Positions 5,303-8,704 of a stretch of 64,000 nucleotides of DNA are shown one piece after another. Made by a program: the position numbers and the translations under genes. This DNA comes from Escherichia coli (lineage in GTDB: Bacteria > Pseudomonadota > Gammaproteobacteria > Enterobacterales > Enterobacteriaceae), in assembly GCF_003334785.1 (NCBI RefSeq), contig NZ_QOWV01000005.1, one strand, 5' to 3'. Below the pieces are notes generated by a model, which had not been told where the DNA came from, did not search any database, and worked only from the letters and a program-made list of their open reading frames with translations. The number at the start of each line of letters is the position of its first letter. The stretch's first letter is position 1.

Positions 5303-7690
5303 TTATCCAATACGTGCTCGTGCGCGTTCCTGTTCACGGATCTGCGCCTGAATTTGTGTATAAAGCTGCGCCTGTTCATTATCGCGATCGGTCGCGGTCA
5401 CGACCAGTGCGTAAGGCTCCTGCTCGCTGCTGAATGCTTCGCCCCAGTCTCTGTCCTGACGGGTAACAACAATAAACCATTTTTCATCCGGGTTACGCTG
5501 GCGAAAAGTCCAAATCGACGACTGTACCGTCCCGCGTTCCCGCTGTTGGGCTGATACAACACGGTTAGTCTGGGCATCATCGGAGCGGGTTTCCGTCTCA
5601 CTCTGCGTCTGGTGATTAAAACTGGCCTGCACTTCATCCAGCGAGCGGCCCTTAACCAGCCGGAAACCGATCCGTGTGGCAGTATAATCCAGCCGGGTGG
5701 TACGCACGGCGGGTGAATATGCCAGCGTAACGCGGACTTCACGGGTTGCACGCTGCGATCGTAAAAAAGAAGCCGGGAAGGGCAGTTCAAAAAATTGGTG
5801 CGCGTTATTTTCTATCTGCTCTTCACATCGCATGACCACCACATTTTCAGAAGAACGATATAACGCATCTTCATCAATGATGCCGTAGCCTGTCACGTCG
5901 CGCTCAATCTCCCGGTTTCTCGTTGCAGGCGCATTTCTATAGCTTTCTCTCATGGCCTGCGGAAAAGCCTGCGTCATCTCCTGAGAAACAGAAGCATGAT
6001 TGACCAGCATTGCCCGCAGCATATTGGCAGACATTTCCGGGTATTCATTTAGCAGTCGACCCGCCAGATGTGTGATATACGGCGCGGCAAAGCTGGTGCC
6101 GCTGAGTTCTTTAAACAGCGTATTACCCTGAAACTGGTGATGGCAGCTTAATACGCCCAGACCGCGCATATGTGCCTGCCATTGCCCTTGCCGAACGTTG
6201 GAAGCGACATTGCCACCGTGCGCTACAACGTCAGGTTTAAACGCGCCTTTTACCGACGGGCCGTGTCGGGTAAAAGGCGACGGTTGGTTTTCCGTTGCCG
6301 GGCTGAGATGCTGAATATCGCCAGGCCTACGCTGCGCATCCAACGTTGCGTTATGTCTGGCGACGCTGCCCACTGTCAGTACGTTCAGCGCCGGAGCCGG
6401 ATCGATGATTACGCTGTCCTCATGCAACAGGTAGTCAGGATATTCATCCCGCCAGCTATTTTGCGGCACCGGAGGATCGTCGCTGCCTGCGAAATTCCCC
6501 GCAGAGACGACAAACAGTACATTATATTGCCGCGCCAGCGTATCTAACAGATACGCCATACCGCGAATATGTTTGCCGTCATAGGGCGCATTAGCATTCC
6601 CCAGCGACAGATTGAAAATGCGGCAACCGAGATCGGTAAAATACGCGACGGCGGCTGTTAGTGTGCTTTCAATCGTTTCGGCATTGAATTCAGCCCGCTC
6701 GTTCAGTACTTTCCCGTTATACAGCCATAGCTGCGGCTGCCAGAAATTGCTCTGGTTACAGGCTTCAACGTCGCCATACAGAGCAATACTCGCTACGGCG
6801 GTGCCATGCCCCTCTTGATCAAACGCATCCTGATTGGGAATAAAGCTGGCGCTTTCAGCAATGGCGGCACTTAACAGAGGGTGATTGGTGTTGATGCCGC
6901 TATCCAGAATACAGACTCTGGCCGCATTTACCGCAGGCGAAATCAGATGCTCTGGAAGTGTATTGATGTCCCGGTTAATTTGTTGATAGCTAATGCCGCT
7001 GGACGGTGGCAAATCAACCAACCTGACGTCCCGATGCGCTAACAGGTATTCTGCTTGCGCGAGCGAAACCTCTATCCGGTACATCAACAGGCTGTCCAGA
7101 TTGACTTTATCCCGCCAGAGAATCCCCTGCTCTCTGAGCCAATTTTCAAAACGGGTATACAGGTCGATACGTCTGGGGTGATGCGCCACATCGACTGGCC
7201 AGAGCTCCACATCCAGATTAAAGCGTTCCGCTACAGGAAAACCATAGCGCCGGAGTGCCCAGCTTTTACGATCTTCCGCCGACCAGCCGTCAATGCCGTC
7301 AAGCGCTTCGAGAATATTCCTGTAGGTTAGGTCCGTACGGGGAAGCCCCAGTTGCGCCAGATGGGTTTCGAAGGTTGTCAGACCCTGCTCATTAGTGAAA
7401 ACGATACAGACCTGTTTACCTTCCTGACTGATGAACTCCACGCCGTGATGTATCAATGCTGAAAAATTCATTGTGCCGCTGTAGTTCAGCTTGAGGATAT
7501 AGCGCCCGTCATCGGCGCTGCCGGGTACTTGTGCCAGCGTTGGGCGCAAGGTATGGAGTTGCGTCAACAGCATTTGCCCGTGCTGGCGTAAATCGCCCCT
7601 GCGAATACGGGGCATATTGACTCTGCGGGTCCGTCGGTCATTTTGAAGTGGTGCTTTGGTAATCGTTAGATGCTGATAATTCGCCGTCAT
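5303..7690 (-). CDS. S8 family subtilisin-like serine protease (IetS-like), with long N- and C-terminal extensions
   Basis: 795 aa; Asp motif 'VCILDSGIN', His motif 'HGTAVASIA', oxyanion 'SAGN', Ser motif 'GTSFAAPYITH' in subtilisin D-H-S order. Confidence 0.85.
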   Translation of the reverse strand: MTANYQHLTITKAPLQNDRRTRRVNMPRIRRGDLRQHGQMLLTQLHTLRPTLAQVPGSADDGRYILKLNYSGTMNFSALIHHGVEFISQEGKQVCIVFTNEQGLTTFETHLAQLGLPRTDLTYRNILEALDGIDGWSAEDRKSWALRRYGFPVAERFNLDVELWPVDVAHHPRRIDLYTRFENWLREQGILWRDKVNLDSLLMYRIEVSLAQAEYLLAHRDVRLVDLPPSSGISYQQINRDINTLPEHLISPAVNAARVCILDSGINTNHPLLSAAIAESASFIPNQDAFDQEGHGTAVASIALYGDVEACNQSNFWQPQLWLYNGKVLNERAEFNAETIESTLTAAVAYFTDLGCRIFNLSLGNANAPYDGKHIRGMAYLLDTLARQYNVLFVVSAGNFAGSDDPPVPQNSWRDEYPDYLLHEDSVIIDPAPALNVLTVGSVARHNATLDAQRRPGDIQHLSPATENQPSPFTRHGPSVKGAFKPDVVAHGGNVASNVRQGQWQAHMRGLGVLSCHHQFQGNTLFKELSGTSFAAPYITHLAGRLLNEYPEMSANMLRAMLVNHASVSQEMTQAFPQAMRESYRNAPATRNREIERDVTGYGIIDEDALYRSSENVVVMRCEEQIENNAHQFFELPFPASFLRSQRATREVRVTLAYSPAVRTTRLDYTATRIGFRLVKGRSLDEVQASFNHQTQSETETRSDDAQTNRVVSAQQRERGTVQSSIWTFRQRNPDEKWFIVVTRQDRDWGEAFSSEQEPYALVVTATDRDNEQAQLYTQIQAQIREQERARARIG

Positions 7691-7699
7691 GGCAGTCCC

Positions 7700-8704
7700 T
7701 TATCGGTGGGTTCTGGCGTTTTCTCGCTGAGTTGCGTTTTTTAAATCTTTTAGCGTCAGGAATTCCTGATGACGCAGGATCATATGCTTGGTTGCCCGAC
7801 GGACAATGCGCTCAATATCTGCACCGCTTTTCCCGAGCAGCAGGGATAATAGCTCGCTATCGTCCAGCTCAAACTGACGGCGGGTGCCGCGTAATTTTAA
7901 CGCCAACAGCTCACGTAACTGCGCCTGATCCGGCAACGGAAATTCAATCACTTCATCAAATCGACGCCAGATGGCGCTGTCCAGAATGTGTTCATGGTTA
8001 GTGGCCGCCAGAATCAGGCTTTTACCCTGATAAGCATCCATCATTTGTAAAACGGCATTGACGACCCGGCGTAATTCACCGTGTTCGCCGCTGTCGCCAC
8101 GCTCTTTTCCTATGGCATCAAACTCATCGAACAACACCACCATTGGGTGCTCTGCAATAAAATCGAAAATTTTACGCAGATTGGCGGCGGTTTCTCCCAA
8201 AAACGAAGACACCAGTACGTCGAGGCGGACAATTGCCAGCGGCATGTCCAGTTCAAAAGCGATAACCTCTGCTGTCAGCGTTTTACCGCAGCCCGGCGGT
8301 CCGAAAAACATGATCTTACTGGCTGCTTTCATCCCGTAGCTATGCAATACATCGCTACGCCGGTGCTCTTCAAGGAGTTCATCAATCACTGTAGCGCTGG
8401 TCGCCGGGAGGATCATTTCATCAAGGCTGCGCTGTGGCTGCCGGAGATCCAGCAACGGCAGGCCCCTTTCTTTATCTATCGGTGCTTGAGGAAGCGCAGG
8501 CGAGCGCGAAGCCTGAACAAGACGATCGCCGTAAAGAATATGCTCCAGATCGTTAGCCAGAAGGTGGTGCTGTTTCTGACGTTCCTCATCAATAATGGCT
8601 TCCGAAACACGACGGAAAGTAGCGGTATCACCCGTTGCGCCCGCTTTTATTAGTTGCCTTAATATCTTACCGTTAGCCATTATTGACTCCTGAAACCACA
8701 GCAC
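7700..8704 (-). CDS. AAA+ ATPase (IetA-like)
   Basis: 334 aa; Walker A 'GPPGCGKT', Walker B 'VVLFDEFD', sensor-1 'ATN'; start codon 1 nt downstream of the helicase stop and stop codon 9 nt upstream of the protease start. Confidence 0.85.
   Translation of the reverse strand: MLWFQESIMANGKILRQLIKAGATGDTATFRRVSEAIIDEERQKQHHLLANDLEHILYGDRLVQASRSPALPQAPIDKERGLPLLDLRQPQRSLDEMILPATSATVIDELLEEHRRSDVLHSYGMKAASKIMFFGPPGCGKTLTAEVIAFELDMPLAIVRLDVLVSSFLGETAANLRKIFDFIAEHPMVVLFDEFDAIGKERGDSGEHGELRRVVNAVLQMMDAYQGKSLILAATNHEHILDSAIWRRFDEVIEFPLPDQAQLRELLALKLRGTRRQFELDDSELLSLLLGKSGADIERIVRRATKHMILRHQEFLTLKDLKNATQRENARTHR

Follow-up and report, generated by a model that had tools for sequence, protein, structure and literature searches.

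What does an ATPase-protease pair do inside a restriction operon? The question is raised by a 64,000-nucleotide stretch of an Escherichia coli contig (NZ_QOWV01000005.1; hereafter the window), in which an original prediction, made from the DNA alone, had recognised an AAA+ ATPase and an S8 serine protease that resemble an IetAS-type module and are nested in a restriction-modification operon. An ORF check placed both reading frames on the minus strand at the predicted positions, adjacent and co-oriented, with the ATPase first and a gap of 9 nt. The nesting was borne out as well. The operon consists of five co-oriented genes, which encode a DrmD-like SNF2 helicase, IetA, IetS, a type III Mod and a type III-like Res, separated in that order by 1-25, 9, 9 and 2 nt; the pair thus lies 1-25 nt from its upstream and 9 nt from its downstream neighbour.

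The longest ATPase reading frame (7700-8704) starts with GTG and encodes 334 aa, as predicted. RefSeq places the start at an ATG at 8680, which has AGGAG ahead of it and is the likely start; the resulting protein has 326 aa (7700-8680, minus strand), and its ATG lies 25 nt past the SNF2 stop codon. In the 334-aa numbering the Walker A motif GPPGCGKT is at residue 135 and the Walker B motif VVLFDE at residue 189; the protein matches Pfam AAA (E 1.9e-30), and the translation contains a pore-loop-like SFLGE and an ATN...RRFD stretch. The nearest solved relatives are the p97/CDC48/NSF rings (E ~1e-57). We propose that this antitoxin-like, single-ring ATPase of the classic clade is a hexameric-type AAA+ unfoldase whose ATPase activity holds IetS harmless.

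The protease IetS (5303-7690, minus strand, 795 aa) begins 9 nt past the ATPase stop codon, and its residues 258-573 match Pfam Peptidase_S8. The complete catalytic triad claimed for it is present: Asp263, His295 and Ser533, together with Asn399 of the oxyanion hole, do not vary among 60 homologues, the most distant of which share 26% identity. KP-43, a subtilase, aligns with IetS over 359 residues. The original prediction had also described N- and C-terminal extensions that could act as sensors or autoinhibitory domains. Both extensions are real. In the AF2 model (pLDDT 89.1) the C-terminal part, from residue ~600 to 795 (5306-5890 for residues ~601-795), is beta-rich over residues 617-768 and ends in a helix (776-794). 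The N-terminal residues 1-250 (6941-7690; Pfam Y4kK_N and Y4kK_2nd) form two ferredoxin-like beta-alpha-beta units, ending with a conserved VDLPP at 225-229. This part has the look of a subtilase prodomain, not of an unknown sensor, and IetS as a whole models as an uncleaved pro-subtilase. The ferredoxin-like fold is a common one, and S6 and ACT domains score almost level with prodomains against the IetS N-terminus. A prodomain removable by an unfoldase would suit IetA as an activator better than it suits the antitoxin role shown by genetics.

The profile comparison with IetA and IetS, which had been suggested as a check, confirmed the resemblance over the full length of both proteins. IetA scored 350 bits (E 4.2e-105) against PADLOC PDLC02196, with residues 10-330 aligned to profile positions 2-323 of 374, and IetS scored 1206 bits against PDLC02198 (profile positions 2-791 of 795). 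Chance is excluded because the HMM E-values are 4e-105 and 0. The NCBIfam reference cut-offs were not reached by IetA (IteA NF042959, 267.5 versus 510) or by IetS (IteS NF042956, 150 versus 900), and the pair therefore represents an IetAS subfamily other than the reference one. Judged by these profiles, it is homologous to the reference IteA/IteS without being the same equivalog, and belongs to the PDLC02198 subfamily. The module is a real and known two-gene phage-defence module, not a new one. It shares with the described IetAS systems (Gao et al. 2020; Agrobacterium pTiC58; B. cereus m1293) the full-length PADLOC matches and the order, in which an S8 protease of ~750-800 aa comes after an AAA+ ATPase; in those systems the protease has been reported to be the toxin, the ATPase the antitoxin and the defence abortive. 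In contrast to these free-standing references, the pair described here is embedded, and it is reported as helicase-dependent.

The helicase gene lies immediately upstream of ietA (8706-11555, minus strand, 949 aa from the RefSeq start; the longest ORF, of 955 aa, reaches a TTG at 11573). Its product contains Pfam SNF2-rel_dom and Helicase_C and scores 668 bits against PADLOC DrmD PDLC02619 and 661.8 bits against NCBIfam DrmD_b, under the cut-off of 950. That score, and an operon without genes for DrmA, DrmB (DUF1998) and DrmC, exclude class 1 DISARM. Hma does not fit either, as HmaA gives only a secondary match (163 bits versus 668 for DrmD) and the operon lacks an Hma ATPase. Lys71 of GLGKT and Asp171 of DEAH in the 955-aa ORF become Lys65 and Asp165 when counted from the RefSeq start, and these are the residues mutated in Liu-DS4, so that the numbering fits the locus exactly. 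Liu-DS4, or ietHAS (AsaH-ietAS), is a three-gene system from E. coli, validated in 2026 in NAR, in which ietA and ietS likewise follow directly on the gene for a DrmD-like SNF2 helicase (PMC13069673). It protects against T7; the K65A or D165A mutation of the helicase abolishes protection, the mutated helicase system is toxic upon induction, and attempts to clone an ietA mutant failed (PMC13069673). Its prevalence is given as >1.5% of E. coli genomes (PMC13069673). In our search the pair was matched in 75 E. coli genomes, 74 of which carry the entire five-gene block, or 74 of 5426 complete E. coli genomes (~1.4%). The first three genes are very probably the Liu-DS4 system, judging from residue numbering and prevalence rather than from a sequence comparison. 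Liu-DS4 was described and cloned as three genes, without mention of Mod or Res (PMC13069673; bioRxiv 10.64898/2025.12.08.692795), and its helicase was seen as recruited by IetAS (PMC13069673). A 2023 report had already noted that type III restriction-modification and ietAS co-localise in E. coli.

The two genes downstream of ietS complete the restriction part of the operon. Mod (3665-5293, minus strand, 542 aa), a beta-class N6-adenine DNA methyltransferase by its motifs (DPPY at residue 68, FAGSG at 336), scores 964 bits against PADLOC MTase_III, and among solved structures EcoP15I Mod is the closest (E 1e-33). Mod alleles diverge in the central third of the protein only, which is presumably the target-recognition region. 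With these motifs and a central variable domain, Mod qualifies as a predicted type III methyltransferase; two E. coli methylome papers do not mention it. Res (792-3662, minus strand, 956 aa) combines an SF2 helicase (Pfam ResIII and Helicase_C; GVGKT at residue 76, DEAH at 224) with a C-terminal PD...ExK nuclease motif (...PDFVVE...LIEPK at 887). It scores 2119 bits against PADLOC REase_III PDLC03648, matches EcoP15I Res weakly (E 8e-5) and reaches 34.8 bits against NCBIfam PRK15483, for which the cut-off is 564. With Mod alleles that differ only centrally and intact Res motifs, the restriction frame looks active.

Promoter and terminator scans of the operon performed no better than on shuffled sequence. 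The only strong hairpin in the operon follows res: an 18-bp stem directly past the stop codon (725-765, minus strand), within a 92-nt stretch that folds at -29.6 kcal/mol (z -4.5 versus shuffles). The terminator scan missed it because no T-run lies behind it, and it may mark the 3' end of the operon. The GC content of IetAS (0.51-0.53) is above that of Mod (0.42) and Res (0.47). The operon is carried on a tRNA-Phe island, and in all enterobacterial copies examined the five-gene block is kept, on pheU/pheV and leuX islands that also carry an integrase.

To which of its neighbours, then, does the helicase belong? We scanned SNF2 relatives using one genome per species. IetAS was found beside them in 1 of 80 scanned loci, whereas a same-strand beta-class methylase accompanies 39 of the 44 full-length relatives with at least 6 kb of downstream sequence. 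In SNF2 relatives of 66-72% identity, Mod and Res are retained and the slot between SNF2 and Mod holds HEC-01A/B or a Schlafen/AlbA_2 protein. Of 33 frames with the same Mod family, 5 have nothing in this slot and 28 carry an insert; in L063, counted among the 28, the insert is probably just a longer Mod. More than ten cargo types other than IetAS occupy it, including AbiU, AbiD, Ppl, HerA and PDC-S02/S05/S06/S13, and several slot proteins have no PADLOC match. Of the slot ORFs of at least 140 aa, 58 of 59 are co-oriented with the frame, and homology between frames ends at the SNF2 stop codon and restarts at the Mod ATG. Cargo in the same orientation, frames that also occur empty and homology that breaks at gene borders are the hallmarks of embedded defence genes.

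The IetS relatives at 60-70% identity, on the other hand, are encoded in bare two-gene pairs, in Pseudomonas, Vibrio cholerae, a cyanobacterium, Dickeya and Klebsiella/Cronobacter; the closest to the E. coli protein is a stand-alone Dickeya protein (70%). A betaproteobacterial frame (L030) has its slot filled by an IetAS whose IetS is ~40% identical to every other IetS compared. On these identities slot-borne IetAS is not monophyletic, two distant lineages having come to occupy the same slot. In the loci compared, no extra domain sets apart the IetAS-bearing helicases or the slot-borne IetA and IetS, and lengths are equal, which weighs against the reading preferred below. The gene neighbourhoods indicate a cargo-slot architecture that holds across phyla, in which IetAS is swappable cargo between SNF2 and Mod and not part of the operon core. 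What this adds to the published work is that the helicase, by its gene associations, is a component of the restriction frame and not of IetAS; the comparison points to IetAS recruited into a helicase-Mod-Res frame, the reverse of the direction given in the ietHAS paper. Read in this way, the helicase reported to control IetAS is native to a widespread type III-like frame that takes many different effectors into one position, which alters the reading of the 2026 work.

We consider it likely that IetAS is an embedded suicide cargo of the SNF2-Mod-Res frame, gated by the helicase and serving as a second line behind restriction. IetS would be made as an uncleaved, self-inhibited cytoplasmic pro-enzyme that kills or arrests the cell once released, and the ATPase IetA would keep it harmless. 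The pair would sit in the variable slot of the DrmD-associated type III-like frame and be read through as part of one five-gene operon. Methylation-based restriction by the frame would form the first line of defence and abortive infection by IetAS the second, with the frame's own SNF2 helicase ('ietH') gating release, so that a phage which evades or interferes with the frame, for example T7, would meet proteolytic shutdown. From the present analysis this reading takes family membership, operon anatomy, slot architecture across phyla, the non-monophyly of IetAS and the prodomain-like fold. Toxin and antitoxin behaviour, abortive infection, helicase dependence and T7 protection come from published papers. 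We infer how the zymogen is released, how the pair shares the work with Mod and Res and what the trigger is.

That IetAS is instead a passive, autonomous passenger, which gains only co-regulation and co-transfer and is biochemically unconnected with the helicase, Mod and Res, seems to us doubtful. Stand-alone IetAS is the rule and the Bacillus ietAS works alone, the slot accepts unrelated cargo, recombination could use the conserved 3' end of SNF2 and 5' end of Mod as arms, and Payne et al. saw embedding mainly as co-localisation and co-regulation. Yet the published ATPase mutants of the helicase lose protection and unleash toxicity, and ietAS of ECOR52 cloned alone gave limited protection only, a point that assumes ECOR52 carries this type. 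Occupation of the same slot by two distant IetAS lineages also argues against a passive passenger.

Unlikely, too, is the reading closest to the published one, in which ietH-ietA-ietS is self-contained, IetAS having acquired the helicase, and Mod and Res form an unrelated type III system downstream. The three genes alone gave T7 protection and helicase-dependent control of toxicity, and the paper never mentions a methylase; that they sufficed against T7 without Mod and Res also counts against the reading we prefer (PMC13069673). However, Mod and Res lie directly downstream in every SNF2-IetAS locus examined, namely the window, its identical copies in TW10722 and 55989, two diverged leuX-island alleles of E. 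coli, Providencia, five enterobacterial islands and L030. The gaps of 9 and 2 nt put Mod and Res on the same transcript, and the association of helicase relatives with methylases rather than with IetAS, and the many other cargo types in the slot, speak against a self-contained trio.

IetA and IetS could also form a two-part ATP-dependent protease, similar to PAN/20S, that degrades a phage or host protein directly and without suicide. IetA is a member of the classic AAA+ clade, which threads substrates, and has an aromatic-hydrophobic-Gly loop (SFLGE), and IetA and IetS are always adjacent and translationally close. We know of no subtilase that docks on an AAA+ ring. Genetics in three systems, moreover, assign the toxin role to the protease and the antitoxin role to the ATPase, IetS is reported to be toxic without IetA, and the Bacillus cereus ietAS behaves as an abortive infection system triggered by a phage protein; we regard direct degradation as quite unlikely. 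Less likely still is a pair that mainly stabilises the island or the restriction operon by addiction, as ietAS does for pTiC58, and does not serve phage defence. As far as citing papers relate it, IetAS was first described as a toxin-antitoxin system for plasmid stability (pTiC58; Yamamoto 2009), and the block resides on integrase-bearing islands. Against this, anti-T7 activity has been reported (PMC13069673), the remaining slot occupants are defence genes, and neither protein resembles a small, labile antitoxin, both being large and apparently stable; the two roles are in any case not mutually exclusive. S8 proteases are usually secreted, and IetS might on that ground be an ordinary exported subtilase that has the ATPase as an accessory, a reading with next to no chance, refuted because IetS is without any export signal and opposed by the defensive context and the full-length match to IetS models. 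Kyte-Doolittle hydropathy detected no signal-peptide-like or transmembrane segment in IetS, the peak mean being 0.44 (15-residue average, first 60 residues) and 1.36 (19-residue average, entire protein), in line with the cytoplasmic target originally suggested.

An embedded, helicase-gated suicide cargo has partial parallels among known systems. PrrC, in the EcoprrI type Ic locus, is a latent suicide effector that is carried in a restriction operon, silenced by the restriction proteins and released by phage; it is an anticodon nuclease, not a protease, and its host system is type I. Physical masking has been shown for PrrC but is a hypothesis for IetS. PrrC is cited as a backup defence in the paper on EcoR22I of ECOR22, a system that restricts lambda and kills the cell upon expression of T7 Ocr (bioRxiv 10.1101/2023.04.06.535777). 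EcoR22I, likened here by its description, is likewise an E. coli frame of a drmD-like SNF2, type III Mod and Res on a mobile island, and it combines restriction with programmed cell death in answer to a T7 product. It differs in that no embedded cargo was reported, the Mod-Res complex itself kills, and its Res is longer (active-site Asp1024 and Asp1043) than the 956 aa found here. Its SNF2 gene was dispensable for Ocr-triggered death, an observation that counts against our preferred reading (bioRxiv 10.1101/2023.04.06.535777). In the Mycoplasma AAA-ATPase/subtilase pair TA132/133, likened on two-gene architecture and roles alone, the protease was shown by experiment to be the toxin and the ATPase the antitoxin (PMC8562856); that pair is free-standing, chromosomal and without a link to restriction genes.

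A more tentative reading makes the SNF2-Mod-Res frame a docking platform of general use, whose helicase, perhaps with Mod-Res, may serve as common sensor and gate for any suicide effector in its two cargo slots. If so, interference with restriction, for example by the DNA mimic Ocr of T7, would release the effector, and 'ietH' would be one case of a cargo-independent guard mechanism, whose effectors elsewhere would include the HEC-01 ATPase-TOPRIM, AbiU, Ppl, HerA and PD-(D/E)xK proteins. It would also offer a first handle on how IetS is unleashed, with an I9-like prodomain displaced under the control of IetA and the helicase. Payne et al. (2024) described the same arrangement, in which a host system carries further defence genes in its own orientation between its genes; type III and SNF2-Mod-Res hosts go unnamed in their main text, as does ietAS. 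The PADLOC DrmD model matches the helicase, and some frames may therefore have been counted under DISARM. Several of their candidates (HEC-01, PDC-S02, S05, S06 and S13) fill the slots of this frame in other species, and the slots are a practical hunting ground for new defence genes.

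The five genes of the block lie head to tail on the minus strand in the order SNF2 helicase (8706-11555), AAA+ ATPase (IetA; 7700-8680), S8 peptidase (IetS; 5303-7690), methyltransferase (Mod; 3665-5293) and helicase-nuclease (Res; 792-3662), with intergenic gaps of 1-25, 9, 9 and 2 nt. A hairpin with an 18-bp stem (725-765) is found 3' of res only, and the 92-nt fold containing it has an energy of -29.6 kcal/mol (z -4.5). The operon structure is argued from the gene spacing and this hairpin, because scans of 300-12100 for promoter and terminator consensus sequences gave nothing above shuffled sequence. 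The original prediction placed an IetAS-type ATPase and protease pair inside a restriction-modification operon. Its two ORFs, their motifs and their spacing proved correct on re-examination of the window, and the pair indeed sits between the SNF2 helicase and Mod/Res, at distances of 1-25 and 9 nt. The ATPase ORF is present, but its most likely start is the ATG at 8680, preceded by AGGAG, which gives 326 aa instead of the predicted 334.

When the resemblance to IetAS was tested against the IetA and IetS models, the PADLOC matches spanned the full length of the proteins, with 350 bits for the ATPase and 1206 bits for the protease on the IetS model PDLC02198 (profile positions 2-791 of 795). The finding is thus real and its interpretation supported. 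The NCBIfam reference equivalogs were matched below cut-off (267.5 against 510 for the ATPase and 150 against 900 for the protease), which places the pair, as judged by these scores, in a subfamily of IetAS other than that of the reference pair. This subfamily is large, with 510 clusters at 50% identity and E <= 1e-30. IetA consists of a single AAA+ module of the classic clade, nearest to the p97/CDC48/NSF rings (E about 1e-57), with an aromatic-hydrophobic-Gly loop (SFLGE) and an N-terminal region of ~110 aa before the module, the composition of a protein-threading hexamer. No solved structure related to IetA or IetS was found beyond generic AAA+ and subtilisin cores.

The complete catalytic triad expected of the protease was borne out: D263, H295 and S533, like the oxyanion-hole N399, do not vary among 60 homologues, which range down to 26% identity. 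Hydropathy shows neither a signal peptide, in line with the prediction, nor a membrane segment, and an exported subtilase is ruled out because IetS has no signal peptide. The structure model of IetS is confident (pLDDT 89.1, pTM 0.85). Its N-terminal part comprises a helix and two ferredoxin-like units (64-112 and 130-226), with a near-invariant VDLPP at their end, and its C-terminal part a beta-rich domain followed by the last helix. The extensions suspected of being sensory or autoinhibitory are modelled as domains at both ends, but the N-terminal fold looks prodomain-like in the model rather than sensor-like.

The helicase scores as DrmD-like (668 bits in PADLOC; 661.8 in NCBIfam, against a cut-off of 950). 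Since DrmA, DrmB and DrmC are all absent from the operon, it is not DISARM; membership in DISARM and in Hma is ruled out by missing genes or scores under the cut-off. Mod scores as type III with 964 bits in PADLOC and matches EcoP15I Mod at E 1e-33; Res reaches 2119 bits on the PADLOC type III model, and EcoP15I Res is only remotely related to it. Among Enterobacterales alleles, the helicase, IetA, IetS and Res have all diverged to a similar extent (88-96% identity), while Mod falls to 66-83% because its central third has been replaced. Such replacement is the trace that specificity switching usually leaves in active type III Mod proteins, and the alignments suggest that the target-recognition domain has been swapped repeatedly. 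When the window allele (3665-5293) is compared with those of four loci from other genomes (L002, L003, L019 from Providencia, and L103), the ends of Mod are 80-100% identical and the central third 3-50%; these five alleles are 536 to 568 aa long. Two E. coli methylome papers give no recognition site for this Mod and do not mention the gene.

The system itself is already known: IetAS was described in 2009 and again in 2020, a report of 2023 found it co-localised with RM III, and ietHAS followed in 2026. Wu et al. listed "RM III and ietAS" among the pairs that co-localise non-randomly in E. coli, and when the systems were cloned singly, ietAS from ECOR52 among them, protection was only limited. 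The three-gene system ietHAS (Liu-DS4; NAR 2026, PMC13069673) consists of E. coli ietAS and a DrmD-like SNF2 helicase and protects against T7. Protection is abolished by the helicase substitutions K65A and D165A, a mutated helicase makes induction toxic, and an ietA mutant could not be built (PMC13069673). Neither this paper nor its preprint mentions methyltransferase or type III genes, and the text of PMC13069673 gives no residue numbers for protease mutants. When numbering begins at the RefSeq start, the lysine of GLGKT and the aspartate of DEAH in the helicase of the window are residues 65 and 165, as mutated there, and 74 of 5426 complete genomes carry the present block, compared with the >1.5% reported for ietHAS; from this numbering and the similar prevalence, the two are very probably the same system. 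What goes beyond the published accounts considered here is the assignment of the helicase to a conserved SNF2-Mod-Res frame that has two cargo slots, the occurrence of IetAS twice in the same slot, and the prodomain-like fold of IetS.

This frame emerges when the relatives of each component are followed separately. Relatives of IetS at 60-70% identity are bare two-gene pairs, and SNF2, Mod and Res are all absent from their surroundings (in Pseudomonas, an SXT-like element of Vibrio cholerae, a cyanobacterium, Dickeya and Klebsiella/Cronobacter). Relatives of the helicase at 66-72% identity keep Mod and Res downstream, with different genes in between: the helicase-Mod slot holds HEC-01A in Aeromonas, where HEC-01B was confirmed as well, and in a marine gammaproteobacterium, and a Schlafen/AlbA_2 protein in Methylobacter. 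A scan based on helicase alignments, with one genome per species, gave at least 80 loci from many phyla. Among the matches listed, 39 of 44 full-length helicase relatives with at least 6 kb downstream are followed by a beta-class methylase on the same strand. The 33 frames considered here carry the same Mod family only; a further 16 loci, whose downstream methylase is ~25-36% identical, were left out and may belong to DISARM-like or other systems.

Among the listed matches, the helicase-Mod gap is 5-64 nt in five of these 33 frames and holds 0.8-5.7 kb of genes in the other 28; the second slot, between Mod and Res, is occupied in 12 of 28 frames. Of the 59 slot ORFs with 140 aa or more, all but one share the orientation of the frame. 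The slot protein of one filled frame, L063, is probably the N-terminal part of a longer Mod. Slot proteins matched AbiU, AbiD, Ppl, HerA, HEC-01, PDC-S02, S05, S06 and S13, as well as LmuB-like ATPases and RmrA/CapP-like proteins. The Mod-Res slot is filled, for example, in L049, L057, L075, L059, L066, L032 and L056, its annotated occupants being PDC-S05, PDC-S02 (PD-DExK) or Schlafen/AlbA_2-like proteins. Several slot proteins of 165-666 aa had no PADLOC match (L045 6372-7421, L046 11820-12656, L050 13695-14516, L052 9803-10651, L053 6505-7314, L075 14616-16616, L025 12817-13359, L057 14697-15194 and L059 13189-13773) and are, by position, candidate new defence genes. DNA homology between frames stops at the helicase stop codon and restarts at the Mod start codon, and the IetAS genes have a higher GC content than Mod and Res. 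By this comparative evidence, the helicase published as "ietH" belongs to the frame itself, and IetAS is one cargo among many that can be exchanged. Payne et al. reported that Hma, BREX, DISARM and type I R-M often hold embedded defence genes.

IetA and IetS also occupy the helicase-Mod slot in an uncultured betaproteobacterium (L030, CAIWHR010000589.1, 8797-17563), where the helicase is 44% identical to that of the window. The IetS of this locus (942 bits on PDLC02198) shares about 40% identity with each of the other IetS proteins compared, and the nearest relative of the E. coli IetS is a stand-alone Dickeya protein (70% identity); on these identities the slot-borne state is not monophyletic. 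The simplest reading would be two independent captures of IetAS by the frame, a hint of some affinity between them. The Mod-Res slot of L030 holds a 171-aa ORF. In Enterobacterales the five genes form a fixed block, seen in the E. coli pheU/pheV and leuX islands, in Providencia and in five further islands.

How the pair is controlled can be considered in the light of published work, in which the protease is the harmful part, checked by the ATPase and helicase and freed by infection. In Bacillus cereus, ietAS acts by abortive infection and has a phage protein as its trigger (Stokar-Avihail et al.), and AAA-ATPase/subtilase pairs act as toxin-antitoxin systems in Agrobacterium and mycoplasmas (PMC8562856). 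Mod and Res would form a first layer of ordinary restriction. IetS would be held by its own prodomain-like domains in a state that the IetA ATPase maintains or resets, and the frame helicase, on DNA beside Mod and Res, would report interference or foreign DNA and lift the block. EcoR22I, a type III R-M system associated with a drmD-like SNF2 gene, restricts lambda, and expression of T7 Ocr kills the cell (Silas et al., bioRxiv 10.1101/2023.04.06.535777); by analogy, one might speculate that this anti-restriction protein is the trigger here. This scheme has weak points: three genes suffice against T7, so that a role of Mod and Res in IetAS control is putative, and if an unfoldase works on a prodomain, activation of the protease would be a more natural outcome than its restraint.

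Over 300-11900 the window matches TW10722 at 100% identity, and 55989 as well as the O104:H4 outbreak strains at 99.9%. The island carrying the block is bounded by a P4-type integrase (14539-15801, minus strand) and tRNA-Phe (15999-16074, minus strand); its end (11769-16074) also contains a DUF2931 protein gene (11966-12559, plus strand) and an IS1 copy (~13.4-14.1 kb). Strain 55989 has the same five-gene block at pheV; in two diverged E. coli alleles it lies at tRNA-Leu. An ORF of 97 aa (410-703, minus strand) that has a hydrophobic helix at its C-terminus, located 88 nt past res and beyond the strong hairpin, matched none of the PADLOC or NCBIfam models; the gene after res varies by island, encoding 168 aa in L002 and L102 and 388 and 177 aa in the Providencia locus. 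Among E. coli genomes, a partial match occurs in ET650 (L004) alone, which has a 477-aa IetS remnant (8980-10413; ~71% protein identity), cut by IS1 and next to a tRNA-Sec integrase, with ATPase, SNF2, Mod and Res absent. In the SXT-like element of Vibrio cholerae (L008-L010, 9014-16055), stand-alone IetAS lies directly upstream of genes for an OLD/TOPRIM ATPase and a UvrD helicase (a Gabija-like pair), with recombination genes (ssb, recT, yqaJ-like) on one side of the region and tra genes on the other.
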